Positions 18,755 through 60,141 of a DNA stretch of 64,000 bases are shown piece after piece (position 1 is the first letter of the stretch; every line of letters begins with the position of its first letter). Position numbers and translations under genes: made by a program. A model generated the notes under the pieces. It was not told the origin of the DNA and ran no database searches. It saw only the letters and a list, made by a program, of their open reading frames with translations. The DNA lies in the IMG/VR virus record IMGVR_UViG_3300045988_170943, positions 1-64,000 of that record. One strand, given 5' to 3'. This stretch comes from a virus.

Positions 18755-19154
18755 CCCTTATCTAGGTAGGTCAGGGTTGTTCTCCTCTGTCAAACATACA
18801 CCAGCAGGCACCAGCACGCCAGTCCCCACGTAAGGTGATATGGGACACAACCAGTAGGTGCCCTTGTGTACGTCCCGCCGGTCAGCCAACCCCGTACCCC
18901 AGAGAGGCCCGCTCGCAATTCCAGTCCGTGTATATGGCTGCCTGCCGCCCTTCACGTCTGACCTGGGCCGCATCCCTGAGAGACGTGTTGCGGAACTACA
19001 GGAAACCGCCTACAATCCACCAAAGAGCCCACCCATAGTAGGGACACCAAAACAGCCCCGTGCGAGACCTGCACATGCTGCACCCAGTTAGCGTGCGCTA
19101 GGGACACGCATCTAGGCCCAGGCCGCACACCCACATAGTTGAAAGAGAACAACC

Positions 19155-19520
19155 ATGACCACGCAGCACATTGTACCCGAGATCGTAGAGAAGCACGCTG
19201 AGACCATCCTGTCCGCCATTGCCAGTGCCACAATCAGCGAAGTCATACTGCGCGAGTACCTAGACGATAGCCAGGTACGTGCCAGCGTCACACTCATCTT
19301 CGACAACGGGACCACCATCTCCATAGCCGACACCGTGTCGTCTTACCCTATCGCGGACACCCTGCCGGGCCAGCGAGTCACTGCCGTCGTGGCCTCCAGG
19401 AACGAAGATGGCTACTGGGGGCTCGATTACCGGAACGGCCGCTCATCCATCTTCCACACTGACGGCAACATCAATCCCGCCGATGCTATCACTGTCACAG
19501 CGGCCAGCGAGACCGCCTGA
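19155..19520 (+). CDS. hypothetical protein (121 aa)
   Basis: RBS GAAAGAGAACAACC. A T-rich hairpin follows at 19521..19560. Confidence 0.5.
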   Translation: MTTQHIVPEIVEKHAETILSAIASATISEVILREYLDDSQVRASVTLIFDNGTTISIADTVSSYPIADTLPGQRVTAVVASRNEDGYWGLDYRNGRSSIFHTDGNINPADAITVTAASETA

Positions 19521-19560
19521 GGAAGGCGTCGGCTCGTCTTGCGCCCCCCTTTTTTGTTGA
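19521..19560 (+). terminator. possible terminator (GC-rich stem then CCCCCCTTTTTTG)
   Basis: A T6 tract immediately after the gene stop. The stem is weak. Confidence 0.35.
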
Positions 19561-19757
19561 CGACAGTAGGTCGGCGGCCAGAGCGGGTGTGGCAACAGCA
19601 GGGGTCTGGCACGTGGCGATAGCATCAAGCAATGAGGCAGGTATCACACCACCCTGGGTTGACAGCAGTGGCACAACCTCCTTAACCTGGAGTGTTCACG
19701 ACCAATCAAGCACCCACGCAAGCAAGTAGCAGGGCACAGACCACAGGAAGAGGCATC

Positions 19758-20159
19758 ATGAGTGACGACAACAAGGTCACAGCGAAGTGGAAGTTCAACT
19801 GGGACGACGAGGACAAGGCCAAGAACATGCTGGTCGGCCGGAAGATCATCAACGTCGAGAAGGTAGACGAATTCAGGGCCGACCTGGCTCTGGATGACGG
19901 CACAAAGGTCGCTATCACCGGCAACATGGGATCGTGCTGCTCGAACGGTGACGTCACTATCGAGAAGTTGTATGAGGGTGAGGTCACGGGCCGTATCATG
20001 GGCATGAACGTGGTTGACAGGGAGATCGAGTACCGGGACAACCGGATCACCTTGTTCATCATGGTTGAGGGCTCAGACCTGGCCCTGGTTGAGTTCGCTG
20101 GCGACGAGGGGTGGGCGTCGTGCTACGGGTATGGCTTCACCGTCTCTGTGATCGAGTGA
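19758..20159 (+). CDS. hypothetical protein (133 aa)
   Basis: Internal ATG of ORF 19692..20159 with RBS GGAAGAGG. Confidence 0.5.
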   Translation: MSDDNKVTAKWKFNWDDEDKAKNMLVGRKIINVEKVDEFRADLALDDGTKVAITGNMGSCCSNGDVTIEKLYEGEVTGRIMGMNVVDREIEYRDNRITLFIMVEGSDLALVEFAGDEGWASCYGYGFTVSVIE

Positions 20160-20377
20160 GGTACACGCCCCTCTGAGTATGGCTTCACTATTCTGGTCCG
20201 CGTCACCATGCTGTGTTTCTTGGTGAAGTGAACCTTTGCTGTGCTGGGTTCGTTGAGGGTGGTTGGGTAGCAGGGGTCGAACCAAAAACCAGGTGCTTGA
20301 TGTGCTTGTGATCTTCCCTTGCTTCTGCTATCATTAGGTCGTTTAGTTATTGGCCTGATTCTGAGGGAGGCGAAGGG

Positions 20378-20734
20378 ATGCTTCTGACTGCTGTACCCCT
20401 AAGTTGGGGACGAACTGGGGTTCTGGGCTCGGTGCGGAAGGTTGCCCGAGTGAGACCAAACGAGATCGAGTCCTATCAGGAGTTCATCTCCCTGGCTGAG
20501 GCGGCCCTGGAGGCACATGGCCTGTCCCCCGTGTCCACCGGGTTCTTCACCAACGAGGGTGAGACCCTGATTGCACAGGTCATGCTAGGGAGGGTCGGGC
20601 ACACCCTGACCTCACTGGGGGTGCTGGTGCGAGCCAGAGGGTACCCTGTGCGGGCGTTCACTTTCCAGGCCAGTCGGAGTGACGCGCGTGCCGTGGTGGC
20701 CGACCTGGGGGATCACCTGAACCGGATCAAGTAA
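20378..20734 (+). CDS. hypothetical protein (118 aa)
   Basis: RBS GAGGGAGG before the ATG. Confidence 0.45.
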   Translation: MLLTAVPLSWGRTGVLGSVRKVARVRPNEIESYQEFISLAEAALEAHGLSPVSTGFFTNEGETLIAQVMLGRVGHTLTSLGVLVRARGYPVRAFTFQASRSDARAVVADLGDHLNRIK

Positions 20735-20934
20735 GGGAGATGAGGCAGAGGCCGAATTGGTACGAACGCGAGTCTATTTCACCCTTGCCGCAGTGTGATT
20801 CCTGTCAGTGTTTCCAATCATATTTTTGTGTCAGATATATAAAGGCGGAAGGCGACACACCCATGACCTGAACTAGTCAGACAGGACACGGGGCATGCGG
20901 CACCACACGGACACACCCCTCACTTGGAAGGGAC

Positions 20935-26940: not shown

Positions 26941-27366
26941 GGTCGATGTTCTTTCTTGTGCTCGCTAGGGGCTGTCGCACCAGCCTAGGCGGAGAGGTGG
27001 TCCTCCTTTTGCTGGTGTGGCTTAGCCCTTGTGTAAGACAGTGATACCACGCGCCTGTCTGGGGCTGCAACTACTGTCCCCTGTATGGTAGCGTGATGCT
27101 GGCCACAGTGCTTGGTTGCGTGTGATTAACGAACGCCACCTAAAGCGTTTGCGTCGCATGGTCTTCCTGGTGCCCCAATAAGGTCATTGCCTGGTTCAGA
27201 GGGGCCGCATCCAAGCCCCGCCCTATAGGGATTGGTGGTTAGAAAACCCATTACTGGGGCGGATTCATGGGCACCCAAGTCAGGTTTCCACCCACCGGGA
27301 CCACAGGAACAGTTTCAAGAGTGTATCCATAGCCACCAGTAAAGGGCGAGAAGGAGACGAGCAGCA

Positions 27367-27630
27367 ATGGCAAACAGGGCCAGCAGGCACAGCATGACGA
27401 AGTGGCACCCACGTAAGAGCGACGGCAAGGCAGTCAGGTGCGAGGCCGATGTCAGGAAGTGCCCAAGAACCAAGGAGGGTGAGGTGCACGTATACGCCAA
27501 CACCCCAGGTGAGGCCCAACGAAAGATCGACACCATCAAAGCCGAGTACGCCGGGGAAGGACTGTTCGCCACAGCATCCACCAGCAACCCCAGCACCACT
27601 GTCACCCCCCCCCAACACCAATTCTGGTGA
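27367..27630 (+). CDS. N-terminal ORF (87 aa, basic, CxxxxxC) ending at a C9 homopolymer; possibly fused by a frameshift to the kinase ORF
   Basis: RBS GAGAAGGAGACGAG before the ATG. A run of nine C at about 27603..27611 lies where it overlaps the +1 frame ORF 27449..28642. Confidence 0.4.
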   Translation: MANRASRHSMTKWHPRKSDGKAVRCEADVRKCPRTKEGEVHVYANTPGEAQRKIDTIKAEYAGEGLFATASTSNPSTTVTPPQHQFW

Positions 27631-28642
27631 CACTAAGCCACCAGCCCCTACCCCTGGCGGTGCCGCACCCAGTGGACGTGACAACACGCCTCCACCGGAG
27701 AACGACAACGACACCCAGGCGAGGAAAGCGTGGGAGCAGATGTCCCTCGTTGAGCAGGGCCGCGAGTGCGAACGCATCCTGAACGAGGCCATACGAAACC
27801 GCCAACCAATCGGCGGGCTAGACCTGTCACTACGTCAACAGTACGCCGAGCGCGCCCTGTCCCAGGCGATACGAGACGGCAAGATCACCAGCAAAATCTA
27901 CGCATCCAGTGAGGTCCCCGGCATGGAGTACACGAAGGAGCGGCACCTGGCGCAGCAGGAGATCATTGAGGACGTGCTCAAGGCCCACGACAAGGTACCC
28001 CGCGAAGGGAAAGCGGTCCTGTCCGGCGGAATGGGTGGAGCAGGCAAAACCACCGTCCTCACCCGATACCTCGGCATGGACACCAGCCAATACATCACCA
28101 TCAACCCAGACGACATCAAAGAGATCATGGCAGAAAGAGGCATGATCCCAACCTTGCGTGGCCTCACCCCCATGGAGTGCTCCACCCTCGCCCACCAGGA
28201 AGCCTCCTACATCTCCAGCCTCATCATGAAACGCGCCATCGCCGAGAAAAGAAACATCATCCTGGACGGCACCATGGCCAGCATGAAGTCCATGAGACGC
28301 AGAACCGGGCAACTTCGAGACGGCGGCTACCACCTGAGTGCCGTGTTCGTTGACATCACCCCAGAAACCTCCCAGAAGCGGGCCACATCCAGGTACCAGA
28401 GAGGCATGAGCAAATACACGACCTCAGGGGAGGGGAACGGTGGCCGTATCCTCCCCGCATCCGTCAACCAGAGCAACACGCCAGAGGACCCGACACGGTT
28501 CAGGTCACGCAGCGCAGAGAACCTGGCGGCCCTGTACGAGGACGGCACCATACCCAGCACCCCGGTCGTCTACAACAACGACGGAGACGCCCCACAGCCC
28601 GTAGCATACGACGACTTCGTTGGTAGGGTTGAGTATAAGTGA
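27449..28642 (+). CDS. P-loop kinase, zeta-toxin-like or AAA_33-like (Walker A GGMGGAGKTT); Pro-rich N-terminal region
   Basis: Walker A sequence VLSGGMGGAGKTTVL, followed by ILDGTMAS, fits the zeta-toxin and polynucleotide-kinase-like P-loop family. The N-terminal 80 aa in this frame are low-complexity, so the true N-terminus may come from ORF 27367 through the C9 tract. Confidence 0.55.
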   Translation: MSGSAQEPRRVRCTYTPTPQVRPNERSTPSKPSTPGKDCSPQHPPATPAPLSPPPNTNSGDTKPPAPTPGGAAPSGRDNTPPPENDNDTQARKAWEQMSLVEQGRECERILNEAIRNRQPIGGLDLSLRQQYAERALSQAIRDGKITSKIYASSEVPGMEYTKERHLAQQEIIEDVLKAHDKVPREGKAVLSGGMGGAGKTTVLTRYLGMDTSQYITINPDDIKEIMAERGMIPTLRGLTPMECSTLAHQEASYISSLIMKRAIAEKRNIILDGTMASMKSMRRRTGQLRDGGYHLSAVFVDITPETSQKRATSRYQRGMSKYTTSGEGNGGRILPASVNQSNTPEDPTRFRSRSAENLAALYEDGTIPSTPVVYNNDGDAPQPVAYDDFVGRVEYK

Positions 28643-28772
28643 CCATAATCACTAGCCTGCTACTGTCGCCACTACACCCGACTGTGTTACCTTGACCCCA
28701 CAGGTGGGTATAGACACCACACCACCCATCCCTACCTTATTCACTAACAACACGCAAAATGAGGAGGTCAAC

Positions 28773-29060
28773 ATGGCGAATACGCTAGTTGACATCTACA
28801 ACGACTATGTTGCCGACCCCACCAAGGACCAGGGCGCCTACATTCGGCGTATCCAGTCCATCCCCGACGAGGACGTGCCCACTATCTCATATGACCGGGA
28901 CGGGATGGTCCTGGACGGGGGCCTGGACGCGAACACCACTGTGGATGTTGTCGCACTCGCCGGGCACCGCAAGGACGACCAGGATGTCCTGTACCAGTTC
29001 TTGACCATTGTCGCAACCGCGCGCCCCGACAAGCCACAGTTCGACCCCAACCTCTACTGA
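28773..29060 (+). CDS. hypothetical protein (95 aa); tandem paralog of 29079..29357
   Basis: Internal ATG with strong RBS GAGGAGG. Shares TLVDIYNDY...RIQ(S/A)IP...(S/T)YD(R/E)DG...GGLD(A/S)NT with the next gene. Confidence 0.5.
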   Translation: MANTLVDIYNDYVADPTKDQGAYIRRIQSIPDEDVPTISYDRDGMVLDGGLDANTTVDVVALAGHRKDDQDVLYQFLTIVATARPDKPQFDPNLY

Positions 29061-29078
29061 CAAAGGAGGGGTGAGGAA

Positions 29079-29357
29079 GTGGCGGCCAAAACACTAGTTG
29101 ACATCTACAACGACTACTATGAGGACGAGGACACCCCAGCACAGGTGTTCATAGCCCGCATCCAGGCGATCCCCCACAGCAACTTCCCCAGGGTCACCTA
29201 TGATGAGGACGGTCAGGAGGACGTCACGGGTGGCCTTGACAGCAACACCATCTCCACCGTGAGGGCTGTTGCTTACGCCAGCCGTGACGACAGGGATGTT
29301 TTTGACGCCTTCATGAACCTCGTTAAGGCGGCACTACCTGACCTGCCCGCCATGTGA
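29079..29357 (+). CDS. hypothetical protein (92 aa); tandem paralog
   Basis: RBS AAAGGAGGGGTGAGGAAG. Paralogous to the upstream gene. Confidence 0.5.
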   Translation: MAAKTLVDIYNDYYEDEDTPAQVFIARIQAIPHSNFPRVTYDEDGQEDVTGGLDSNTISTVRAVAYASRDDRDVFDAFMNLVKAALPDLPAM

Positions 29358-48103: not shown

Positions 48104-48125
48104 CAAGATAGGGGCGTGATGCTAT

Positions 48126-49275: not shown

Positions 49276-49304
49276 GTTACCTCCACTGAACATCGGGAGC
49301 AAAA

Positions 49305-49811: not shown

Positions 49812-50018
49812 TTGGCCCTCCCACATAATCAGGGGACGCCAATAACCTCGTAAGAAGGGCATGGGCTGCGCTTTCCGTCAGTAGAGGGTGTGGCCCATGC
49901 TGCAAATGAGTATGTTGTTTGCTTGGTCTTGCAGTAGAGGTCGTGCTACAATCGGCTGCAAAGTCCAACAGAGGTTGTAGCGAATCAGCACAACAGGCAA
50001 TAGAAGGAGGCGATTCGG

Positions 50019-50594
50019 ATGAGCGCTCGTGAGATGTTCTCCACGCTGGACACTACTCTGACGATGGCTTCAGGGGTTGAGGCGAGGTCGCAGACAGTTA
50101 CCACGCACAGGTCCACTACAGATATAGACGCTTTACTGCCAACACAGGATCACATCAGCATTGAGGCAATCTGCTACCAGGACGCTGGCGGCGACTCGTG
50201 GCGTTCTATCCTGCTGACAGCCATGTACAAGTATAAGAAGATCCTATCATATTCTCTACTGCCGTCCTCAATGTTCCCTGAGGGCTCTGGTGGCGGAGTG
50301 GCAGACGAAGAGGTTCCTTCCAGTGTTCACAGGTTTATCAGGCAGGCAAGAGTCATCGCCCGGCTACTGCATTATATTCCGGGGGCAAAGTCTGCTGACA
50401 ACACTGTTGAGGTCACGTTCAGTAGCGGCAGACATGAGTTCGTGGAGGTCTCTGAGGACGCGAACAATCCTGACACTGTGCTGGTGAGTGTCTGGCCTCA
50501 GAAGGGGGTTCGTGAGATGGTCGCCGAGTTGCGTGAGCCGTTCAAGGGTCTCATTGTCCGCAACTATGATGACGGGTTCTCAGTAGTTCTGTAG
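50019..50594 (+). CDS. hypothetical protein (191 aa)
   Basis: Strong RBS AGAAGGAGGCGATTCGG before the ATG. Confidence 0.55.
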   Translation: MSAREMFSTLDTTLTMASGVEARSQTVTTHRSTTDIDALLPTQDHISIEAICYQDAGGDSWRSILLTAMYKYKKILSYSLLPSSMFPEGSGGGVADEEVPSSVHRFIRQARVIARLLHYIPGAKSADNTVEVTFSSGRHEFVEVSEDANNPDTVLVSVWPQKGVREMVAELREPFKGLIVRNYDDGFSVVL

Positions 50595-50685
50595 GCAGAA
50601 ACTCGGGATAGAGGGACACCATTCAGTGCCGAAAATCCCTATCCACTAGAACCTCAAAAGATAAGGAAAACGAGAGGAAACGGCT

Positions 50686-50856
50686 GTGGAGAACATCACC
50701 ACTTACACCATCTACATCGAAACTGCTCTCCCCTTCAACGGGATGAAGACCCTGGAGAAGCGGATCAAGAGGTTCCTCAAAGAGGTTGGGCTTGATTTCC
50801 GCACCGATTTCGGTAACTCTCAGGACACTGGCAACTACAATGCTTTATTCGAGTAG
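50686..50856 (+). CDS. possible small protein (56 aa, GTG start)
   Basis: Not in the track. RBS GAGAGGAAACGGCT before the GTG. It lies downstream of the GGGACACCA motif copy at 50605..50621. Confidence 0.3.
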   Translation: MENITTYTIYIETALPFNGMKTLEKRIKRFLKEVGLDFRTDFGNSQDTGNYNALFE

Positions 50857-50882
50857 AAGAGAAAGCTCCAGAAGACGAGCAG

Positions 50883-51188
50883 ATGGCGAAGTGGCTTATC
50901 AGTGGTGAGTCAGTCGTTCACAAGACGGTTATTCCTTTCTTCGAAGGCAATGAAGGTGTCATCAACTGCGAGGATAACTGCGTCCAGTTCGCTGCATCAC
51001 AGATCATTGATTACGACAGCACCGAGTTCTTCTCTCGCTCCCAGACGACACGGTACAAGCGGCACAAGGATACAGGAGAATTGAGGCAGGAGCGCACGGT
51101 CGTCAATGACACAAGTGTTAGATGGTATTCCACCGCTGTGCCCGCCTTGCTTTCACGTATATCTAGTGGTGTTTCTGGGGGCGCCTAA
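50883..51188 (+). CDS. hypothetical protein (101 aa)
   Basis: ORF track entry with a weak RBS. Confidence 0.4.
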   Translation: MAKWLISGESVVHKTVIPFFEGNEGVINCEDNCVQFAASQIIDYDSTEFFSRSQTTRYKRHKDTGELRQERTVVNDTSVRWYSTAVPALLSRISSGVSGGA

Positions 51189-51247
51189 ACGCCCTCATAA
51201 GGGAGTCCTGTGACCTATGGTTGTTGCCCCTCCCCCGAAGAATGTGC

Positions 51248-51340
51248 GCGTGTGCCCCAGTTCACATAGCACTGGGGTTGCGGTCACCGGCCCTAGTGCT
51301 CTATGCTGGTGCCACAAGCCAAGGACAACAGGTCTGAGGC
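51248..51340 (+). promoter_or_regulatory. promoter-leader cassette copy (GCGTGTGCCCCAGTTCAC, GGTTGCGG-N18-TATGCT, leader GCCACAAGCCAAGGACAACAGG)
   Basis: Copy lying upstream of the ATG at 51364. Confidence 0.6.
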
Positions 51341-51363
51341 GGCAGCCGGAAGGAAACCTCACC

Positions 51364-51945
51364 ATGAACGTCACCCCGATCACTGACCTGTCCGTCCCCA
51401 CCACTAAGGTTGTTGTCAAGGCCGTTCGTGACGCTTTCGGCGAGAAGGCCGGACAGATCACTGGTGTCCAGTGGGTTGATAGCGATGGTCGTGAGGCAGC
51501 CAAGGTGTCCACCCATGTCGGAGACACTGAGGTTGAGGTGCAAGTCGTTGAGGTCCGTAACACTGGGTTCACTTTCACCATCACCACCAAGGATAGTCAG
51601 GGTGAGGTCCTTTCTGACTTTCTTGGTCACCATGTTAAGGTCGATGAGATGAGGAAGATCATCTCAAAGACCTATGACACCGCGTGGCGAGTCACCCTCA
51701 TGCGTGGCCTCCTGAAGGATCGCGGATACGATGTTTCTCCTATCAGCGATGCCAACATGTTCACCGTCTACGACCAGGGCCACCATAACAGCGCTGAGGT
51801 TGATGTCCAGATCCATAAGGGGATCATTGACGTCGGCTCTGAGAACGGCCGCAAGTTCGCCCAGAAGGTTGCTCTGGCTGGAGCGCTCAGCGGAACAGTC
51901 ATCCTTGATGAGAACTATGGGTCCATTGTTCGGGATACTCTCTGA
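51364..51945 (+). CDS. hypothetical protein (193 aa)
   Basis: Internal ATG (50th codon of ORF 51217..51945) with RBS GGAAGGAAACCTCACC. Confidence 0.55.
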   Translation: MNVTPITDLSVPTTKVVVKAVRDAFGEKAGQITGVQWVDSDGREAAKVSTHVGDTEVEVQVVEVRNTGFTFTITTKDSQGEVLSDFLGHHVKVDEMRKIISKTYDTAWRVTLMRGLLKDRGYDVSPISDANMFTVYDQGHHNSAEVDVQIHKGIIDVGSENGRKFAQKVALAGALSGTVILDENYGSIVRDTL

Positions 51946-51964
51946 GACCTGAGAACAGAACATA

Positions 51965-52008
51965 CCCTTGGGTTACGCTGGCCGTCAGTATCCAGCGTAA
52001 CCCAAGGG
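51965..52008 (+). terminator. perfect 17-bp hairpin CCCTTGGGTTACGCTGG / CCAGCGTAACCCAAGGG (no U-tract)
   Basis: An inverted repeat 20 nt after the stop of gene 51364..51945. Confidence 0.4.
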
Positions 52009-52100
52009 CGTTACTACTTGCCTCCGCCTTCCTGAAGTAGAGCCAGTCGAGCAAGGTAAACTTTCCTGTAGGAAGTGCTAAAAGTCGAGAAGAGGTCAAG

Positions 52101-52757
52101 ATGCACAAACCCGGGACCATCGCCAGCATTGTTGAAAACGTTAACGTCAATGGGGTTCATGAGACGTTCGGCAGTGTTGAGTCAGCATCTAGGAACGGCT
52201 GGTACGACTGGTTCTGTGACAGCACCATGTTGAAGCACCGCACAAAGAAGTTCCTCCCTATTCTTAGCGGAATCTCAGGCGAGGGCAAAGTCAGGGCTGA
52301 TAGCAGGGTGACTTTTAAGAATGCGTGCGGCCAACGCCTGTACGACCTAATGACACTGAAAACTAGGGACACACTCTTATGCATTGAGAACTTCCCAGAA
52401 CGCAACGGGGCCCAGTGGCTTGTCACCACCTATCATAGTGGAGACGTGGGAGAGAAAGGAGAGGAGTACAGGTTCAACGACACAGGCGCCCTCACAGCAT
52501 GGCTTAACACACCCTGGGAACAGGTCGGAGACGACGGAGACTCAGGCGACGTTGAGCCTGTTAGCGACTTGCATCTAGGGGCAGGAGATGAAGACGCTGG
52601 CGGCCGCTCGAAAGAGTCCAGCAGCAAAAGTGTGCCCTTGGAGGAGATGCTTGAAGTCATAGAGGAGATCCTTCATGGAGACCCCTGGATGTCGGATCGC
52701 CAGCGGGAAGCCCTTGAAAACGCAATGAGGTTCATCGACAGTAAGACCGGCAACTAA
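52101..52757 (+). CDS. hypothetical protein (218 aa)
   Basis: RBS GAGAAGAGGTCAAG before the ATG. Confidence 0.55.
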   Translation: MHKPGTIASIVENVNVNGVHETFGSVESASRNGWYDWFCDSTMLKHRTKKFLPILSGISGEGKVRADSRVTFKNACGQRLYDLMTLKTRDTLLCIENFPERNGAQWLVTTYHSGDVGEKGEEYRFNDTGALTAWLNTPWEQVGDDGDSGDVEPVSDLHLGAGDEDAGGRSKESSSKSVPLEEMLEVIEEILHGDPWMSDRQREALENAMRFIDSKTGN

Positions 52758-52812
52758 CCTCAAAGCAAATTAGTCGCCGGTCCTTGCTGGCAGACAATCT
52801 CCCGCCTGTTGC

Positions 52813-53262
52813 CTAGACAGAGGCCACATGCTCAGCGACAGTGAGCAGGGCCGAACTCAGGTAGCCATGCTCCTCAACGTCACCACCAATAGTCGTAGCG
52901 AACGACCCGTCCTCGCTGTGGCGGATGTCAGCAACGTGCTCACCTAGCACGGACACATGGTAGCCGTCAGCATCCTCCGTGACATCAGCGTCTACCAGGC
53001 GGCGGAGACGACCCTCAACGGAGACACTTGTGTCAGCCAGGGCAACGCGCATGAACTCCCATGTTGCCGCATGGGTCATATCCAGTCGAAAACTTGGTGT
53101 GACGGACCCGCCCACGCGACCGATACCGTACATGTCACCAACGATCACAAGAGCGACGCTGCCGAGAATCACAGCATCATAGTCGTCGTTGTGGACAGTG
53201 CGAACGACTGACTTAGGGAACTGGTTGCGGATCCATTTTTGCATGTTCTCAACAGTGCTCAT
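52813..53262 (-). CDS. hypothetical protein (149 aa)
   Basis: ORF track entry with protein-like composition. Convergent with gene 52101..52757. Confidence 0.45.
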   Translation of the reverse strand: MSTVENMQKWIRNQFPKSVVRTVHNDDYDAVILGSVALVIVGDMYGIGRVGGSVTPSFRLDMTHAATWEFMRVALADTSVSVEGRLRRLVDADVTEDADGYHVSVLGEHVADIRHSEDGSFATTIGGDVEEHGYLSSALLTVAEHVASV

Positions 53263-53343
53263 GTGTGTCTCCTATCTTGTGAGTGTTTGTTGCTGGCTGA
53301 GTCGAATCTTGCGTGACTACCATAGTACGTATTGGGAAGTCAG

Positions 53344-53676
53344 TCAACTCTCATCAATCTCATCAGCATCGACCCATTTCTCACTGAGACCTAGATACTC
53401 GCAGTACGGAACGTACTCAGTCGCCGATCCGGCGATGCCATTGGCAGCGTCCTCTAGCGCCTGAAGCATCTCCTCCGCTGTATCCGTTTCGTCCGAGAGA
53501 TTCGCACGGATGTCCTCGGGAGTGCCGTACACGGTGTTGAGCCACGTTCGAATGTCGTCACGGCTAGTGTCATCAGTGACAATGAGTTGTCCACCTGTGC
53601 CAATCTCATCGGTGACGACTTTCACGGTGTCGCGGTGGATACGGACGAAGTAGCCACCACTGTTGTTGGTACTCAT
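53344..53676 (-). CDS. hypothetical acidic protein (110 aa)
   Basis: ORF track entry. RBS GAGGAG before the start; on the plus strand this appears as TTGAGGAGATTCTGAGATG. Confidence 0.45.
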   Translation of the reverse strand: MSTNNSGGYFVRIHRDTVKVVTDEIGTGGQLIVTDDTSRDDIRTWLNTVYGTPEDIRANLSDETDTAEEMLQALEDAANGIAGSATEYVPYCEYLGLSEKWVDADEIDES

Positions 53677-53835
53677 CTCAGAATCTCCTCAATTTACTCA
53701 GTAGAGGCCCTTCACCTCGCCGATGATTCGAGCATACACTGCGACTATAACAGACTGCAACGCTCTCACGTGTGATGCGCACCATATGTCAAAGTTGCCG
53801 GTGCTCCAGACTCTCCCCATGCTGCTCTATGACCC

Positions 53836-53900
53836 ATGTCACTCGTTCTTGAGTTGACTGCCCATGGTGCTGGTGGGTATGGTTGAGTCACAAGCAAGGA
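53836..53900 (+). promoter_or_regulatory. promoter-leader cassette, degenerate box (GTCACTCGTTC), TTGACT-N18-TATGGT, leader TGAGTCACAAGC
   Basis: Copy lying upstream of the ATG at about 53910. Confidence 0.5.
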
Positions 53901-53909
53901 GGAAGAACA

Positions 53910-54431
53910 ATGGATAGCCAAGTCAAGGACATTATCAAGGAAGCGCTGAATTTGTACGCTTCTAGGGGCATTGATGATGAAATGTTCTACACTGAGGATC
54001 GTGACATTTTCATCTTTGTCAGGTCGGGAGGTATGGTCGCTCAAGCGATTCTTCCTATTGGTGATTCTTTCGCCGAGTTTGAGGTGACGCACTACAATCT
54101 TCACCCTAACTCCATTGCGGAGATTGTTCAGACGGCGATTATGCACCGTGAGATCATGCTCGCCTGCATTAAAGCCCTGGATTCTAAGGGATGGAGTGTG
54201 TCTGCGTATAGGCCATTCTTCTATAAGGGGGTTGCTGTTGAGCGAGATGGCGAAAAAGCCCTCCTGACTGACCTAACAACCGCATCCGTCACTATCGAGG
54301 GGGACGGGTTTGAGGCTGTCGTTGAAGACCTCCACCAAAGCGGCATCCTCAGGGATCGAAGGTTCATGACACCTAGAGTGTTTACTTTCTCAAATGCCAC
54401 GATCAATGCGGCAGTTAACGCCCTGGACTAA
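53910..54431 (+). CDS. hypothetical protein (173 aa); 4-copy paralog family
   Basis: Internal ATG (10th codon of ORF 53883..54431) with strong RBS CAAGGAGGAAGAAC. Shares ALDSKGWSVSA with the other family members. Confidence 0.55.
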   Translation: MDSQVKDIIKEALNLYASRGIDDEMFYTEDRDIFIFVRSGGMVAQAILPIGDSFAEFEVTHYNLHPNSIAEIVQTAIMHREIMLACIKALDSKGWSVSAYRPFFYKGVAVERDGEKALLTDLTTASVTIEGDGFEAVVEDLHQSGILRDRRFMTPRVFTFSNATINAAVNALD

Positions 54432-54466
54432 AAGAACAACCAGTACATTTGATGAAGGAAGATAAG

Positions 54467-55111
54467 ATGACCAACTCTGACACTGGCACCATTGAGGCGA
54501 TCTGCGAGGCCATGAAGGCCATCGAGAACGCTAACTGCTCCAACGACTTGGTGTGGTCTCTCGACAAGATCCCCCTGAAGTACGCCCCAGAGTGGGGTTT
54601 CAAGTGCCCTGCCGTCAACAAGGATCTAACCCAAAAGATGCGCACCATGACAGGTGATGACCGTCTGTTCGTTGTGGCCGAGAACACCACCGACCTCTGG
54701 GATCATGGGATCGTCCGCTACGTTGAGGACAACGAGTGGGGATGGATAGTTGACGGATATGGCGACGAAGACAATAGTGTCCACCCTGAGGACATTGAGG
54801 CCGTCTGGGGTGCCTACCTGAAACTGACTGACAGCACGTTTACTGTGGACCCAGGTGAGTTCCGCTGGGATGAGGACTACCTTGAGTACGTCCGTAATCA
54901 GGCCGTCAAGGTTTCTGGTGTCATTGGAATAGACAAGGCGTGTGAACTCATGGTCAAGGTGTTTGAGGACGCTGACTTCAAGGTTAAGGGCATGAGGGAC
55001 ACCTCCCCTGAGCATGGGCGTGTTGGAATCGTTATTGTAACCAACTATGACGGCGAAGAGCACCTTGTTGGTTATGGCCGCCCCAGGGTGCGTTTCCACC
55101 AGGTCTCCTAG
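54467..55111 (+). CDS. hypothetical protein (about 214 aa)
   Basis: Internal ATG (7th codon) with RBS GAAGGAAGATAAG. Earlier starts at 54449 or 54452 are possible. Confidence 0.5.
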   Translation: MTNSDTGTIEAICEAMKAIENANCSNDLVWSLDKIPLKYAPEWGFKCPAVNKDLTQKMRTMTGDDRLFVVAENTTDLWDHGIVRYVEDNEWGWIVDGYGDEDNSVHPEDIEAVWGAYLKLTDSTFTVDPGEFRWDEDYLEYVRNQAVKVSGVIGIDKACELMVKVFEDADFKVKGMRDTSPEHGRVGIVIVTNYDGEEHLVGYGRPRVRFHQVS

Positions 55112-55134
55112 TCGCCCTTACTCCAAGGGGTGAC

Positions 55135-55746
55135 ATGTTAGAAGGGACACCAATAGTGGTTAACAGGTTGGATGACTACTGCCATATAGATGACCCGTTC
55201 GCCCGCACTGCCATCAGTTTCGTCATGAACTCGCGCGACTTCACTGGCGGACTGATCGAGGCAGTGTACAAGACCGTCTACATGAGCAGTTACGATCCAG
55301 ATGCCCTGTGTCAAATCCTGTGCGAGATCCCCAGGCAGGTGTTCGCACTGAACCGGTCAATCACCGCTGGAGACGCCCTTGTGAGTAGTGTTGTTGACGA
55401 TCTGGTGGCAGAAATGTGCCGTGCTGTGTGGAGGGTTGAACCTGAGGACACTCCGCTCTTCAAGGCGCTAGAGGTTCAGTCAAGCAGCAGGGTTCTTGCA
55501 GAGGGGGAGGATAAGGTCTCTTGGTCTCCAGCGTTCACCTGGCAGGACTCTAATATGCCATGCCTGGCAGTCAACTTCTACAGCGGCATGATTTACGTCA
55601 GCGATTACACATATAAGGGCGTTGTAGCGGACAGGTACACTTCATGGCCTATCAAAAGGTGGATTTTCCGTTCCCGGCCGGTCGCTCGTGAGATTGTCGG
55701 CCAGTACCATGAGACTGAACCGCTGAGGGAGATGGAGTACTTCTAA
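55135..55746 (+). CDS. hypothetical protein (203 aa)
   Basis: RBS CAAGGGGTGAC before the ATG. The GGGACACCAATAG motif lies at codons 3 to 6. Confidence 0.45.
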   Translation: MLEGTPIVVNRLDDYCHIDDPFARTAISFVMNSRDFTGGLIEAVYKTVYMSSYDPDALCQILCEIPRQVFALNRSITAGDALVSSVVDDLVAEMCRAVWRVEPEDTPLFKALEVQSSSRVLAEGEDKVSWSPAFTWQDSNMPCLAVNFYSGMIYVSDYTYKGVVADRYTSWPIKRWIFRSRPVAREIVGQYHETEPLREMEYF

Positions 55747-55881
55747 CAGGTTCAGTGTCGCCCCTATTCATGTGATAGAAGAGCACGGATAGGGGACACC
55801 AGACAGCAGTCAGGGGAGTTCGAGATGCACCCATCTGATTTGCGCACCTAGACACCACATCTCAGGCAAATCAGGCCCCTC

Positions 55882-55973
55882 TATGTGGCATAGTTCACAC
55901 GAACCTGGGTTGCAGCACTCTGGCTGGCCGTGTAGTATGGAGTCATCAGCCAGGGAGCACAAGGCTTCCGGCC
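55882..55973 (+). promoter_or_regulatory. promoter-leader cassette copy (TATGTGGCATAGTTCAC, GGTTGCAG, TAGTAT, GGAGTCATCAGCCAGGGAGCACAAGGC)
   Basis: Copy lying upstream of the ATG at 55992. Confidence 0.6.
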
Positions 55974-55991
55974 AGAAGAAGGAGCACAAGA

Positions 55992-56153
55992 ATGGACATT
56001 AGTTTCGCTGTCGCAGTCATTGAGAAGATGATCTCCGACGTGGAGGCCCGCATCAAGGTTGAGGACAACATGACCAGCAGGACAGTGCTCACGATCAAGT
56101 TGGATGCTTATAAGGAGGTTCTGGCTGAGGTTGAGCCTATGGCTAACGTCTGA
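55992..56153 (+). CDS. possible small protein (53 aa)
   Basis: Not in the track. ATG with RBS GAAGGAGCACAAGA, directly behind a cassette copy. Hairpin 56171..56215 follows. Confidence 0.4.
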   Translation: MDISFAVAVIEKMISDVEARIKVEDNMTSRTVLTIKLDAYKEVLAEVEPMANV

Positions 56154-56170
56154 TCTCTGTCAACACCTTT

Positions 56171-56215
56171 GAGGGTGGCACACTGGTTAGTGAGAGACCA
56201 AGCGTGCCACCCTAT
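56171..56215 (+). terminator. hairpin AGGGTGGCAC / GTGCCACCCT (10 bp) then ATTCC
   Basis: An inverted repeat after the small gene 55992..56153. Confidence 0.35.
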
Positions 56216-56711
56216 TCCTGTGCTGGAGGCGATGACGCGATATGTACCCCCTTTACGTCTAGGTGACTCTCAAGGCAGAGGTTGTGTGTTTCTCTGTGGC
56301 ACCTTAGTTCGCTGGCTCAAGAGTTGGTGCAGGGGATGAGGTCGGGTGATTGCTGGCGGTGTCAGATGTTTTCTGACCTTGCGGCTCAGCAGTGTCATGC
56401 TGCTCGCCGTCTTCTGGGGCACTGGGCTGGCTGCTAAGACCGGAAGACGGGATACTGAAGGGTGCAGTGGCTCCGTAGAGGTGCCTTTGTATAGGCCGAC
56501 TGTCTCTGTCGTCTACTTGAAGCCCAGGAGGAATAAGTTCTATGGAATCGCCATTCGTGCGGCTTGGCTACCAGAATAGAGCCGCAAGGGTTACCATTAT
56601 AGTAAAAATCACTATTACTGCTGGACCGATTCTGCCATGCCTGACAAAACTGACGACGAAGAGCAACATAATTAGTGTTACCACTCCGATTATTAAGGTT
56701 ACCATTTTTGC

Positions 56712-57017
56712 CTAGTTCACCGGTTTGCGGGTTGGCGTATAGGTTGGGTGGTTGCTGTTATCGGGCGTACTTGTTTCGTGTGTGACTGAGTGATGACTCA
56801 TGCTGCTAGATATATCGTGCTCTGGATATACAGCATCGCCAATTACAAATATTCCGGAAAGAATAGGTCCGAACAGCGCCCCAAATAATATGATAGCAAA
56901 TAGCATTTCGTCAATCTTGGAGCCCCACTTTACAAGCATCCACAAAATGAGGATGCCAACCACTATCAGTGCGATACCAAAAACCACGTCAATCACCTCA
57001 GGTCCTTTCTGCTGCAT
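56712..57017 (-). CDS. small membrane protein (101 aa, 2-3 TM, hydrophilic C-tail); holin-like topology
   Basis: TM segments VVFGIALIVVGILILWMLV and LFAIILFGALFGPILSGIFVIG. Sits in a low-GC patch. Confidence 0.4.
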   Translation of the reverse strand: MQQKGPEVIDVVFGIALIVVGILILWMLVKWGSKIDEMLFAIILFGALFGPILSGIFVIGDAVYPEHDISSSMSHHSVTHETSTPDNSNHPTYTPTRKPVN

Positions 57018-57172
57018 GCACCTTCACATGTTAGCAGATCGTTGAGGAAAAGCAAGAGGGTGAAGCGAATCTTACTGCCGATCATTTTCTTGAGCGTCAG
57101 AGGTGTTGATGTGAAACCGCCCCGCCCTGTTACAACAGAACAGGGCGGGGCGGTTGAGAGGGGCCTGACGGC

Positions 57173-57832
57173 TCACACCTGGGGGAGAAACTTGCTCACA
57201 GGGATGAGCATAACCTCAGACTCGACGAACGAGTCCTGGCTCTTAAGATCCTCGCCGAGCCAGAAGAGCGAATTTGCAACCATATCAACAATCTTCCCCG
57301 AAGGATCCGTCTCGCCGCCGCTCCCGCTGTAGAAGTTCATGGAAATCATGTCACTGTCCTCCACGCTGAAAGTAATGTCTACAGAGGAGGTGTCGTCAGT
57401 GTCTTCGGAACCGATCTCCACCTCAATGGTGTTCTCAGCAACACTACCCACCCAATCAGCCTCATCCGAGAGGTTGCGAACAAGGTAGGTGGCGACCTCA
57501 GACTCCGCCTTGACGCCCTTGACGTGCTCGATAATTGCCGCAATGGCCCCGTACACGGACATCTCAGAGATTCGACGCACCTCCTCCTCAAAGCGCCCAG
57601 CCGTCTCAGTTACGCGAGAGACAAGGACGTTATCAGAGGTGTTGGAGTATCGAATGCGGACGTTGTTGACAGTAGTCCAGATGTAGTTATCGTTCATGTA
57701 GACTTCAACACACGGGATGTTGAGCGCGAAAGCGGTCTTGACAAGAACGCGAACAGGAATTGACTCCTTGCGAAGAGAATTGAATGTCTTGCGGTCGAAC
57801 TTGCTGAACACCTGGATGCTAACATTCTCCAT
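57173..57832 (-). CDS. hypothetical acidic protein (219 aa)
   Basis: ORF track entry. A minus-strand copy of the promoter cassette lies directly upstream. Confidence 0.5.
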   Translation of the reverse strand: MENVSIQVFSKFDRKTFNSLRKESIPVRVLVKTAFALNIPCVEVYMNDNYIWTTVNNVRIRYSNTSDNVLVSRVTETAGRFEEEVRRISEMSVYGAIAAIIEHVKGVKAESEVATYLVRNLSDEADWVGSVAENTIEVEIGSEDTDDTSSVDITFSVEDSDMISMNFYSGSGGETDPSGKIVDMVANSLFWLGEDLKSQDSFVESEVMLIPVSKFLPQV

Positions 57833-57847
57833 GATTCCCCCTCAGGG

Positions 57848-57942
57848 TCTTGCCTTGGGCCGGTTGCCCTTTGGCTGATAACCCAACCATACCCCACCCG
57901 CCAGCCAGGAGGCAACCCCACTGTGAGTGAACTGGGCCACAC
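57848..57942 (-). promoter_or_regulatory. promoter-leader cassette copy on minus strand (GTGTGGCCCAGTTCAC, GGTTGCC, TATGGT, TGGGTTATCAGCCAAAGGGCAACCGG)
   Basis: The reverse complement of 57848..57942 matches the consensus. It drives gene 57173..57832. Confidence 0.55.
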
Positions 57943-58058
57943 ATCACAACACTGCCCCCAGCCGTGACCCGCATTGACCTGCCAATGGCTGGGAGTGGTG
58001 TTGTTGAAGATAGAACGGGTGGGGTGAGCCCGACTGTTCTCGCCCCACCCGTTCGGAG

Positions 58059-58880
58059 TCACCCGAGCACTACAGCATCCTTCTGGGCCTCAACAATCAG
58101 AGCATATGCGTCAGCGATGCGTCCAGCCCACACCATGGGCATGGAGTCGCTATAACTCTGGGCGCGAATCTCACGAACCGTCTCAATCAGCATGTTTGAG
58201 GCCAGCATCTCATCCACACTGGGGGCATACACCCCAACGTCCACACCCCAGCGGGCAGACTGAGCATTGGCCTCCAAGGCAGCCTGAACGCGCTCATCAT
58301 CGGGGATCTTGAAGTCCTCATGCAGGGGTACATTGATTCCGTCATCGTTGCGCATGTACTCGCGCCACACAGTGCGGAACAGGTCGAGATGAGCCAGGGG
58401 AACATACCACTCTCCCGCATGAGGCCCAGAGATGTTCGTCATCATCTTAGCGTCATAGTGCTCAGGGAGCCGCTTCGTGACCTCAACCACGCCATCGGAC
58501 ATGACCGCATACAGGGCAGGTGCAGGGCGAGAAACGATACCGTTAATGATGACAGAACGCGAGTAGTACTCATCGTAGCGTTCACGAACCACCTCCCGCT
58601 TATCTCGGCTCCCCAAGTGGAAGGTGTCGTAAACCTCACCATCACAGAAGGTGGATACAGCCTCGTAAATCAGGCCGTCAGGGGCGATAAAGTAGGTGTT
58701 TCTCCCAATGATGGTGGGGTGATCGCCATCCCACGAAGGGAGAGTCGTCTTAACTGTCTCCTTGCGCGATGAACGGCCGTAACCTCCATACCCCTCGCAG
58801 CGGATCCTGACCTTGACGGGCTTGGCTCCCGCCTTGATTGCGGCGTCCTGGCTCTCGGTCATGGTCTTAACGGTAATCAA
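58059..58880 (-). CDS. hypothetical protein (273 aa)
   Basis: TTG start with RBS AAAGGAGA at -6. Preceded by a minus-strand cassette variant. Confidence 0.5.
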   Translation of the reverse strand: MITVKTMTESQDAAIKAGAKPVKVRIRCEGYGGYGRSSRKETVKTTLPSWDGDHPTIIGRNTYFIAPDGLIYEAVSTFCDGEVYDTFHLGSRDKREVVRERYDEYYSRSVIINGIVSRPAPALYAVMSDGVVEVTKRLPEHYDAKMMTNISGPHAGEWYVPLAHLDLFRTVWREYMRNDDGINVPLHEDFKIPDDERVQAALEANAQSARWGVDVGVYAPSVDEMLASNMLIETVREIRAQSYSDSMPMVWAGRIADAYALIVEAQKDAVVLG

Positions 58881-58889
58881 GGGAGTCTC

Positions 58890-58975
58890 CTTTTGTGCGG
58901 TGTGTGTTTGTTGACTGATGTGAACACTACCTACTGTTCAGAGATGTGTCAACCATATGGTGTGTGAACTAGAAC
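58890..58975 (-). promoter_or_regulatory. cassette variant on minus strand (CTAGTTCACACACC box, TTGACA-N17-TAGTGT)
   Basis: The reverse complement shows the box followed by a sigma70-like promoter, upstream of gene 58059..58880. Confidence 0.5.
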
Positions 58976-59119
58976 ATAGTCGCACGAGATTTGAGCATAA
59001 CCGCTAGTAAGCACCAGAACCAACCTTCCGAAAGTGGGCATTCAAGGTTGGTTCTGGTGCTTCTATTGGAGGCATCTGAATGAACTTAGTAATGAGTCCC
59101 GGCCAGGATATTGGCTGAC

Positions 59120-59410
59120 TTACTCGACATTCCCCTCGCGCTTGTCCCACGTATCTGTTGGTACCACCTCAAAGCCGACCTGAACTCCAACCTTGTCCAC
59201 CAGGCTCATCGCCTTTGCCATGGCTTCGCTTGGTGACTTTGCGTCAATGGTGACAACCACGTCAATCATGCCCGGAAAATCAGTCGAGTCACTGATAGCG
59301 GGGTGGTATCCTTCAAGGTTGGTCATGATGTCATCCACCATAGCGTCCTCATCAGGGTACTCGTTGGGGTTGACGTTGATCGTGGCATTGTACAGCATGC
59401 ATTCTCCCAT
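59120..59410 (-). CDS. hypothetical protein (96 aa)
   Basis: ORF track entry. A candidate promoter TTGACG-N13-TACAAT lies upstream on the minus strand. Confidence 0.45.
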   Translation of the reverse strand: MGECMLYNATINVNPNEYPDEDAMVDDIMTNLEGYHPAISDSTDFPGMIDVVVTIDAKSPSEAMAKAMSLVDKVGVQVGFEVVPTDTWDKREGNVE

Positions 59411-59584
59411 GTGTCAAGTGTGAAGCAAGTTCTGCCATTGTAGCACATGTGCGTCAAGGGTGGCAACACGTTCCAGCAGAACCAGGTAGGTAAGGAAGTT
59501 GGGAGACGTGGCTCATAGGGGCTGAACGCCTCCCATCTCTTTTAGCCCATCCTCCCTTTTACAAAGGAGGGTGTTGGGAAATGT

Positions 59585-59950
59585 TTACGCCCAGGTGACA
59601 TCTTCAACATGCTCCCAGGATAGCCCCAGAGTGTTGAGCAGTGCATCCTCGGCAGCCTCGCGGTCAGAGTTCTCCATGCCTACCTCACCATCAGACCCAG
59701 GAACAGTGACTTCAATGTCACTCATCCAGTAGGGCGGCTCAGTATCCACCCCGTACAGGCTGTCCACGCCAGGCGGGATGACGTCAGAAACTCGAAGAAC
59801 CCACGGCCCGCCATTAATGTCGGTGTCGCTGGAGAGAAACCACTGGAGGACAATCTTAGTGCCGTCAGACACCAGCGCCTTAGCCTTCTGCTGTGTAGTG
59901 CTCATCAATGCTCTCTTTGAAGTAACGGTCGTTAACCTTTGCGACAACAA
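59585..59950 (-). CDS. hypothetical protein (121 aa)
   Basis: ORF track entry. RBS AAAGAGAG before the start. Confidence 0.45.
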   Translation of the reverse strand: MLSQRLTTVTSKRALMSTTQQKAKALVSDGTKIVLQWFLSSDTDINGGPWVLRVSDVIPPGVDSLYGVDTEPPYWMSDIEVTVPGSDGEVGMENSDREAAEDALLNTLGLSWEHVEDVTWA

Positions 59951-60141
59951 CCTAGATGCTCATCAGCATAAACCTACACTGCTGTAGTAGTCAAACACGG
60001 CACGAGTGATCTGCCGCACACCCACACAACAGAGAGAGTGGAACGTACTGCACCGACCTGAACCTAATCACTATAGGGACACCAATATTAGATGACGCGG
60101 GGCAAGACACCCAGAACCTTCTCTATGCGCGCTCTATATAA

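Follow-up and report, generated by a model that had tools for sequence, protein, structure and literature searches.

A conserved nine-base word in intergenic DNA of a giant oral extrachromosomal element, probably a new transcription-control signal

The stretch of DNA analyzed here (the window) comprises positions 1 to 64,000 of the IMG/VR virus record IMGVR_UViG_3300045988_170943, part of a giant extrachromosomal element of approximately 400–420 kb from the human mouth. We find that a nine-base word in this window, GGGACACCA, is a real and almost certainly functional motif, judging from its distribution and its conservation. It is a new cis-element of a general kind that is already familiar, and it is probably a new transcription-control signal. 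Our tentative choice among the more specific explanations, which falls well short of a firm conclusion, is a DNA recognition site that is sequence-specific and direction-dependent, i.e., a promoter core or loading site that serves a transcription factor distinct from the primary sigma factor of the host. Below, L-numbered labels (L001, L137 and so on) denote stretches of contigs from relatives of this element.

Results

Occurrence and chance expectation

The window contains six exact copies of GGGACACCA, all on the plus strand, at 72, 19041, 50613, 55144, 55793 and 60076 (see the table). An initial annotation of this DNA had listed the last five, each of which is indeed an exact plus-strand match, and had overlooked the coding copy at 72–80; the similar word that it reported near 19098, TAGGGACACG, is present at 19099. 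Its chance expectation of 0.5 copies was too low, since dinucleotide shuffles give 1.10 copies, with six or more in none of 100 shuffles. Unrelated viral contigs (2.2 Mb) contain 0.30 copies per 64 kb, or 0.40 in the subset with 50–60% GC, and the word is thus enriched 15–20 fold over unrelated viral DNA. Its one-mismatch variants are not enriched: 35 were observed, six of them the exact copies, compared with 26 expected.

Five of the six copies are intergenic, while intergenic DNA makes up 27% (17 kb) of the window when genes are called roughly by codon usage. Four of the five listed copies had initially been called intergenic, but by these gene calls all five are: conservation does not extend to the ATG at 55135, and the start that is conserved in that gene is the GTG at 55156. 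No 9-mer is commoner than GGGACACCA in the 17 kb of intergenic DNA, where all five copies lie on one strand; the strongest (core) word of the sigma-70 promoter cassette described below is equally frequent. In Markov-1 simulations of the intergenic set, any 9-mer reached at least five copies in 29 of 1000 cases, corresponding to a family-wise p of approximately 0.03 from the window alone. The distance from the copies to the start codon ranges from 12 to 199 nt.

The copy at 72 sits in a conserved protein, a homologue of L135 7660–8355; the homologue is intact in two related contigs. A second coding copy, on the plus strand at L137 14693 (= L135 5685), again reads G-D-T-K.

Conservation among relatives

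The strongest evidence for GGGACACCA is its conservation among relatives. Six genomes were aligned over window positions 46993–64000, with pairwise identities of 86–91%. In the spacer 55747–55880 (141 alignment columns, six genomes) 30% of the columns are invariant, and the sole invariant run of five or more nucleotides is GGGACACCA at 55793–55801. This copy, the best supported of all, is exact in 13 of 14 sequences despite flanks of three mutually unalignable haplotypes, the exception being L125 with GGGATACCA. The further invariant islands past 55793 are AGTTCACAC, the –10 box and the leader; because these are all parts of the sigma-70 cassette, the word is conserved as well as known promoter elements.

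At 19041, the 12 nt of AGGGACACCAAA stay unchanged in both L001 and L002, as an island within flanks that are only approximately 79–80% identical, and the same haplotype is found in 10 more public contigs. A sigma-70-like promoter lies upstream, with the hexamers TTGCGR and TAYAAT conserved 17 apart in the same two relatives while spacer positions vary, and the copy is located approximately 18–28 nt downstream of its predicted start. The variant copy further down the same leader is doubtful because, although TAGGGACACG is kept in L001, it is altered to TAGAGCCACGC in L002.

The block around the 60076 copy is kept in eight of the nine sequences that cover it, i.e., in the window and seven of eight relatives, with L128 reading GGAGAACC instead. 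The extra A after the motif is absent from most relatives. The site is flanked by the divergent promoters of 59585–59905(–) and 60252–60656(+); upstream of the copy we detect no plus-strand promoter, and there is no plus-strand gene.

At 55144, TTAGAAGGGACACCAATAGTGG is conserved in L003, L123 and L124, that is, in the closer lineage only. The gene behind it is found with two different start spacers: the window lineage has the motif plus GTG and no clear Shine–Dalgarno sequence, and the distant lineage has AGGAGG plus ATG. The conserved start is at the codon of GTG 55156, which is ATG in the distant relatives. At 50613 the exact word is shared with the window by L132 alone, the other relatives having GAGAGACACCA or GAGGAACACCA, with ACACCATTCAGT conserved; because its GGG is lost in most relatives, this copy is probably an incidental or weak member of the set. 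At a further site, 6452, the copy is exact in one of three genomes.

These comparisons also bear on the explanation that the word has no function of its own and merely reflects composition (CA-rich leaders and GGG runs), coding, or the ancestry of duplicated intergenic modules. Such an origin would account for the two exact coding copies, both reading G-D-T-K, for the loss of the 50613 copy in most relatives and the poor conservation at 6452, and for a family-wise p no lower than approximately 0.03 in the window alone; intergenic regions of this element do also have duplicated modules in common. It does not account for nine bases that stay invariant in an otherwise unalignable spacer, for the island at 19041, or for the enrichment over control DNA, and the flanks of the different copies are without homology, hence the copies are not duplicated modules. 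We therefore regard an absence of function as barely credible, and the word is under selection.

Orientation and flanking sequence

In IMG/VR relatives, the DNA to the left of the window carries copies at L137 7866 (+), 9261 (–) and 13716 (–), which are intergenic or in 5′ regions, the minus-strand copies being about 4–9 kb left of the window. The initial observation that the motif is found on the plus strand only thus holds inside the window, but not as a property of the genome. By our own tally the word is directed at the nearest or downstream gene in seven of eight informative sites (one-sided p ≈ 0.035).

The flanking sequence was compared across 11 copies with independent flanks, with the word as the anchor of the alignment. 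Position –1 is a purine in all 11 and position –2 is A or T in 10 of them. Positions –6 to –1 are 67% AT compared with 45% in distant flanks (p = 3e-4), and AT makes up 61% of the four bases that follow the word (p = 0.02), so that the extended form is W-R-GGGACACCA with AT-rich flanks. No partner block at a fixed distance, upstream or downstream, is found among the 11 aligned copies, and the flanks of different copies have no mutual homology.

The T7-like core at one site

Positions 60068–60079 read TCACTATAGGGA, which is exactly the –7 to +4 core of T7-class promoters, as the initial annotation had pointed out when it proposed that the copies might be promoters for a phage-type RNA polymerase, RNA processing sites or binding sites. 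In T7-type promoters the conserved region is the polymerase-binding region from –17 to –5, and the consensus spans about 17–23 bp. The annotation had itself counted the non-conserved upstream region as an argument against a classical T7-like family, and this is borne out, since the 11 aligned copies share nothing from –17 to –5. The proposed promoter family is not supported: membership in the T7 class fails on two defining features, because there is no shared consensus and the T7-like core is found at one site.

That the copies could nevertheless be strict T7/T3/SP6-class promoters, with initiation at the GGG, gains some credit from the 60076 site. In addition to the exact core, the 17 bases TCACTATAGGGACACCA at this site differ by one mismatch from the T7 phi10 promoter sequence, TCACTATAGGGAGACCA, and the block GAACCYAATCACTATAGGGACACC is conserved among relatives. 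The shorter word CACTATAG is mildly over-represented, with four copies compared with 0.98 expected and at least four in 3 of 100 shuffles. The resemblance does not extend further. A CACTATA-like core precedes the GGG only at 60068–60079, the other copies having ATAGTA, GATAGA, TTAGAA, GGATAG and similar, and positions –17 to –3 are without shared information across the set. At the 60076 site itself, positions –11 to –9 are TAA rather than the GAC of T7. The only other AATCACT-bearing copy is L137 13716, where the distance to the GGG is 2 nt shorter, and more generally the spacing to upstream AATCACT or ATAG elements varies by 0–3 nt. AATCACTNNNGGGA occurs once, which equals the chance expectation, and the conserved part of the motif is centred on +1 to +9, i.e., on sequence that would be transcribed. 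No open reading frame (ORF) in the window reaches 600 aa, the longest being two TnpB genes of approximately 510 aa, and no polymerase was hit among the proteins searched. A strict T7-class identity is accordingly highly improbable; the likeness at 60068–60079 is best treated as coincidence, and it gives no basis for inferring a phage-type polymerase.

One of the other CACTATAG copies, at 9383, reads ACACTATAGGAAGG, which is SP6-like; it begins 22 nt after a TACAAT box and just before gene 9406–9831.

Relation to sigma-70-type promoters

The window also holds approximately 20 modular sigma-70-type promoter cassettes. Their order is a CRP-like dyad TGTGN-N6-TCAC(A/T)C, approximately 10 nt, a –35 of GGTTGC or GTTGAC, a 17-nt spacer, a –10 of TATAGT, TATGGT or TAGTAT, then the hairpin-capable leader GAGTCATCAGCC, a Shine–Dalgarno sequence and a start codon, usually about 100–110 nt after CAGTTCAC (range 79–166). 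Each cassette serves one small, often acidic ORF, frequently with a strong terminator hairpin behind it. A pattern scan of IMG/VR for CAGTTCAC-N8–11-GGTTGC returned chance matches only.

As initially noted, a cassette of this type sometimes follows the motif: this is true for the copies at 55793 and 60076, with the cassette about 75–100 nt away or, measured to the GTTCAC anchor, with the word 99 and 73 nt upstream. In the first of these cassettes the conserved islands are 55892–55900, 55932–55943 and 55945–55953. With the word present at only 2 of approximately 20 cassettes, it is not a constitutive cassette part. It is not a sigma-70 promoter either, there being no TAnnnT at a fixed distance after it and no –35 before it. 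A MotA-like box with a –10, an ECF-type –35 with a CGT/GTT –10, sigma-54 and sigB promoters were also rejected, by inspection, as no partner lies at a fixed distance.

The placement of the copies relative to these promoters is relevant to the explanation that GGGACACCA is an operator for an element-encoded DNA-binding regulator, whose global regulon would repress or activate neighbouring sigma-70-type promoters as KorA/KorB or AdpA do. The 19041 copy, at about +18 to +28 of a conserved promoter, is in a classic roadblock position, the 60076 copy lies between two divergent promoters, and the copy at 55144 takes up the spacer of a weak promoter-like match, GTGACA-N16-AATAGT. Furthermore, four of eight intergenic sites are in divergent regions, the conserved islands are compatible with any protein-binding site, and the element is plasmid-like (TcpE, a TcpF/VirB4-like ATPase, CpaB and a PilT-like ATPase are encoded). 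However, dyad symmetry is absent from the word, as is a second half-site at a constant spacing. The copies also stand at no uniform place relative to promoters (+18, about –90, about –115, or with none nearby), such that several modes of action would be needed. Only 2 of approximately 20 cassettes carry it. Operator sets are usually degenerate, whereas one-mismatch variants are not enriched here, and the downstream proteins are acidic and without a DNA-binding domain, with no obvious cognate regulator nearby. We consider an operator possible but unlikely. Two narrower versions were rejected: a palindromic KorA/KorB-type operator, because GGGACACCA is not self-complementary, has no reverse-complement copies in the window and has no partner at fixed spacing, and a downstream autoregulator at 19041 or 60076, because of the acidic products without a DNA-binding domain.

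A second promoter-like word, TGCTGGTG, is found in front of genes, directly before or within approximately 10 nt of a TATGNT –10 box. It has seven bases in common with E. coli Chi (GCTGGTGG), but is located in promoter spacers.

RNA structure and possible action after initiation

The initial annotation described hairpins at 50605..50650 and 55765..55805. Both are possible in the window sequence, where GGGATAG (50605–50611) can pair with CCCTATCC (50637–50644), and CCCCTATTC (55761–55769) can pair with GGATAGGGG, which lies just before and into the 55793 copy; however, the arms are lost in other haplotypes. There is no shared RNA fold: 13 copies give differing structures, with minimum free energy (MFE) z-scores from –1.7 to +1.3, and Rfam has no match at any copy. 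A structured cis-RNA or a REP-like or attC-like hairpin was therefore rejected, since no conserved fold contains the word.

A signal acting after initiation does not need a fold. The word could be a linear RNA site for a protein, a nuclease or a small-RNA seed, or a non-template-strand loader of an elongation or antitermination factor such as ops/RfaH; a factor loaded in this way would carry polymerase through the many terminators of the cassette-rich region. Both forms of the proposal have, in our view, a rather small chance of being correct. Sense transcription is expected at most copies, i.e., in the leader at 19041, at the operon junctions at 50613 and 55144, and in the terminator-free 3′ region at 55793; a linear RNA site would stay exposed in AT-rich flanks that lack stable structure; the sharpness of an exact 9-mer suits base pairing; and terminators and one-gene units abound in the region. 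The difficulty is that the best-extended site, 60076, has no upstream plus-strand gene or detectable promoter, which argues against a purely RNA-level role there. Moreover, the complement TGGTGTCCC is absent from the window as a trans-acting RNA, and the two L137 copies of TGGTGTCCC lack extended complementarity to the targets by inspection; a trans-acting RNA carrying the complement was rejected for want of extended pairing. There is no resemblance to ops or boxA, and no NusG-like gene among the proteins scanned.

Several further candidates were tried and rejected. A polar word of the Chi or KOPS type does not fit, as the orientation in L137 flips within about 1–5 kb and the copies are concentrated in intergenic DNA. 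An end or target of an IS200/IS605-TnpB element is not indicated by the junctions and empty sites of the two such elements in the window, which are without the word. For a tRNA 3′-end mimic (the word resembles an acceptor 3′ strand followed by A and CCA) or an att core, ARAGORN finds no tRNA, and no T-loop like GGTTCGAATCC precedes the copies. Finally, a recombination or cassette boundary might be suspected at 55156–55746, which has a copy on each side, yet relatives without the left copy retain the gene.

Positions of the motif copies and of other features (in the window unless an L-numbered contig stretch is given)
Feature	Position	Strand	Remarks
Motif copy	72..80	+	Coding, CAC CAT GGG GAC ACC AAG = HHGDTK; not counted as regulatory
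Motif copy	19041..19049	+	Exact match; divergent region, 17642–18748(–) / 19155–19520(+)
Sigma-70-like promoter TTGCGG-N17-TACAAT	18988..19016	+	Upstream of the 19041 copy; context, outside the motif
Variant copy TAGGGACACGC	19099..19109	+	Same leader as 19041, 58 nt further downstream
Motif copy	50613..50621	+	19 nt past stop of 50019–50594, 73 nt before 50686–50856
Motif copy	55144..55152	+	In 44-nt spacer (55112–55155) before GTG 55156, at the expected ribosome-binding-site position
Motif copy, best supported	55793..55801	+	47 nt past stop of 55156–55746; ~100 nt before the sigma-70 cassette of 55992–56153
Conserved block AATCACTATAGGGACACC(A)ATATTAGATG	60066..60094	+	Contains the motif at 60076–60084 and the T7-like core at 60068–60079
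Cassette below the 55793 copy	55882..55953	+	TGTGGCATAGTTCACAC dyad, –35 TTGCAG 55910–55915, –10 TAGTAT 55933–55938, leader GAGTCATCAGCC
Cassette below the 60076 copy	60135..60200	+	AGTGACCCTGTTCACAC, –35 TTGACG 60167–60172, –10 TATACT
Sigma-70-type cassettes	372, 1487, 36411, 37062, 37884, 39171, 42054, 42664, 43339, 44232, 48662, 49201, 51258, 55892, 60149	+	
Sigma-70-type cassettes	57933, 58970, 33273	–	
CACTATAG	9383, 13662, 60069	+	
CACTATAG	39966	–	
TGCTGGTG	397, 21647, 53868	+	
TGCTGGTG	14353, 18799, 18809	–	
Zeta-toxin/AAA_33 kinase-domain protein	27449–28642	+	Remotely like Mycobacterium phage Phrappuccino gp57
Rce1-like CAAX protease	32065–33036	–	
TnpB elements	4352–6015, 45344–46992; L001 8133–9733; L136 19016–20526; L129 8422–10079		
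DPPW-motif protein	L135 993–1781		Many prophage homologues, about 55–80% identity; no NCBIfam hit
Left-flank genes	L218		TcpE, TcpF/VirB4-like ATPase, CpaB, MinD/ParA-like ATPase, 949-aa PilT-like ATPase, 798-aa protein

The host element and its gene content

The window is about 86–90% identical to IMG/VR contigs of 201 kb and 394 kb, and 12 metagenome contigs are similarly close, including ones of 400,504 bp (ERZ772924.1 NODE_1) and 408,666 bp (ERZ772978.2 NODE_2). The 121-aa protein encoded at 19155–19520 has an exact match on at least 23 public contigs, among them ENA ERZ27262911 k119_16908 (L221) of 418,686 bp, in records labelled human oral metagenome (e.g., L228) or Human Microbiome Project samples. 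No close relative was found among INPHARED phages by megablast, with tblastn giving remote hits only, among PLSDB plasmids, where there were remote ATPase hits only, or among GTDB species genomes, searched with two different proteins. An exact look-up of a 475-aa ORF found nothing useful, and a literature search for the 9-mer returned primer sequences only. The GC content of the window and the sampled flanks averages approximately 55%. Although catalogued as viral in IMG/VR, the element looks no less like a conjugative plasmid, and could be a giant one or else a phage-plasmid. It may represent an undescribed family with a high-GC host; the GC content, together with the style of the promoters, suggests an actinobacterium of the mouth such as Rothia, Corynebacterium or Actinomyces. 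The published Inocles, with 24–32% GC and Streptococcus hosts, were rejected as its identity because the GC content differs.

Nearly all window proteins are without a family assignment, the exceptions being two TnpB proteins, a zeta-toxin-like domain, a DUF7448 protein (19758–20159) and an Rce1-like protease. The DPPW-motif protein of L135 is, judged by that motif, probably an MT-A70-type adenine methyltransferase. Conjugation and pilus genes are found about 18–28 kb to the left (L218 1–12500 = IMGVR_UViG_3300045988_187272 140395–152900). The 798-aa protein among them was considered as a polymerase and rejected: neither PDB nor Pfam gave a hit, its N-terminus is G/S/R-rich, and its C-terminus is, in our reading, winged-helix-like.

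The TnpB elements, which encode RNA-guided nucleases, are polymorphic insertions, and relatives show empty sites or copies elsewhere. In L129 a TnpB copy replaces the –10 box and gene 60252–60656, approximately 110 nt after the 60076 motif copy.

In L137 500–11000, about 4–14 kb left of the window, the GC skew runs from –0.44 to +0.69 and the AT skew from +0.58 to –0.74, with the switch at approximately 4.2–4.5 kb. Several kilobases of this stretch are without convincing ORFs and one strand is CA-rich; L137 8725–10000 is 99–100% identical to L138, while the neighbouring DNA is less conserved. Low-complexity genes would be one explanation of the stretch; others are an origin or terminus and a long non-coding region. 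Finally, 18 kb of the window (27240–45291) is missing from the 394-kb IMG/VR contig, the ends of which map to approximately 27240 and 45291; either the circle is broken there with a gap, or this is a variable stretch.

Discussion

A possible independent initiation or loading signal

The explanation that we tentatively prefer is that GGGACACCA serves as a promoter core or loading site read in one direction. Its reader would be not the host primary sigma factor but either a polymerase encoded by the element or a sigma factor, alternative or element-encoded. The word would drive transcription toward the downstream gene, alone at 50613 and 55144 and stacked with sigma-70-type promoters at 19041, 55793 and 60076, much as phage middle and late promoters are stacked over early ones. 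We infer from the arrangement of the copies that the reader may be a transcription protein, that initiation may take place at or directly after the word, and that direction may matter.

We prefer an initiation signal because one rule would then explain all the copy positions. Specifically, the variable distances to the start codon and the positions on either side of sigma-70-type promoters fit independent initiation better than a site for an activator or repressor. Phage promoter sets usually consist of near-identical copies, and the sharp definition of the word fits such sets because its one-mismatch variants are not enriched. The enrichment, the selection, the AT-rich patches on both sides of a GC-rich block and the orientation toward genes at seven of eight informative sites also count in favour of this explanation.

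A number of observations count against this preference. With a G+C content of 67%, the word is poor as a melting element. In the 11 aligned copies the region where a polymerase would bind has nothing in common from –17 to –5 and is at background from –20 to –7; sharing nothing upstream is unlike the known promoters of single-subunit polymerases. No polymerase, sigma factor or other transcription protein was hit among approximately 58 proteins covering approximately 100 kb of the approximately 400-kb genome. The next 9.5 kb to the left and the 9.6 kb to the right of the window contain no further copies. The evidence for direction-dependence is modest to weak: divergent regions hold four of the eight intergenic sites, and either orientation is gene-directed there, while the copy at L137 7866 may be antisense. 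A transcript starting at 55144 would have almost no leader. Finally, conjugation and pilus genes are present at the left, and plasmid regulons usually use operators.

In a more far-reaching version, the element would encode an undescribed transcription apparatus, whether a sigma-like factor or a divergent polymerase, for which GGGACACCA would be the promoter core or loading site. The element itself would represent a new high-GC (approximately 55%) oral lineage of approximately 400–420 kb, distinct from Inocles, and the word would mark a second temporal class among approximately 50 small acidic, possibly anti-defence, genes. This combination has a slim chance of holding in full.

Reports of giant oral extrachromosomal elements are recent, and hardly any of the genes in them, or of the controls on these genes, are understood. 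The present element is common in public oral metagenomes, and a short, exact and selectively maintained word provides a concrete handle on its regulation. If the element does encode the reader, then such elements would run a transcription programme of their own. If the word is an ordinary operator, it is a useful and unsurprising annotation.

Comparison with known systems

The resemblance to promoters of the T7 group is that the copies are sharply defined and mostly gene-directed, and that GGGACACCA is one base off the phi10 transcript start, GGGAGACCA. It differs in that only 9–11 bases are conserved here, with no 17–23 bp consensus and no cognate polymerase gene found, and in that the host element looks like a conjugative giant plasmid. 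The related promoters of SP6 and K11 are ATTTA-GGTGACAC-TATA-G and AATTA-GGGCACAC-TATA-G, respectively; an AT-rich patch, the GC-rich 8-mer GGGACACC, an A/T-rich 4-mer and a start resemble their –17 to –1 layout. This register suits the composition of the motif better than the T7 one, but the likeness does not amount to a test.

The T4 late promoter (TATAAATA, recognized by gp55) and the MotA box at –30 are likewise short, asymmetric single blocks repeated through a mobile genome, without a –35/–10 pair and stacked with early sigma-70 promoters. However, the T4 late element is AT-rich and located at –10, whereas GGGACACCA is GC-rich, and the MotA box precedes a –10 hexamer at a fixed distance, whereas no such hexamer follows GGGACACCA.

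The sites of IncP KorA/KorB and Streptomyces AdpA are also scattered over promoter regions at variable distances from start sites, and the element studied here likewise resembles a plasmid. Asymmetric sites of approximately 10 bp have a precedent in AdpA (the 10-bp TGGCSNGWWY). The differences are that KorA/KorB sites are palindromic and AdpA sites are degenerate and found in either orientation, whereas GGGACACCA is exact and mostly co-oriented with genes. Another short, exact and strand-specific word known from a mobile element is ops (GGCGGTAGNNTG), by which RfaH is recruited to operon leaders such as that of F-plasmid tra. It shares the location in leaders or between genes, and a signal of this kind would make sense in a terminator-rich region, but its sequence is dissimilar, one well-conserved GGGACACCA copy is not below any detectable promoter, and no NusG paralogue was seen.

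At the level of the whole element, there is a parallel with Inocles, which are likewise found in the human mouth, are circular-plasmid-like, measure about 395 kb and have a majority of genes without known function. Compared by description only, the two differ in GC content, at 24–32% for Inocles and approximately 55% here. A replication-relaxation-like winged helix-turn-helix (wHTH) protein, an impression not backed by Pfam, NCBIfam or PDB, would be a counterpart of the Inocle marker InoC.

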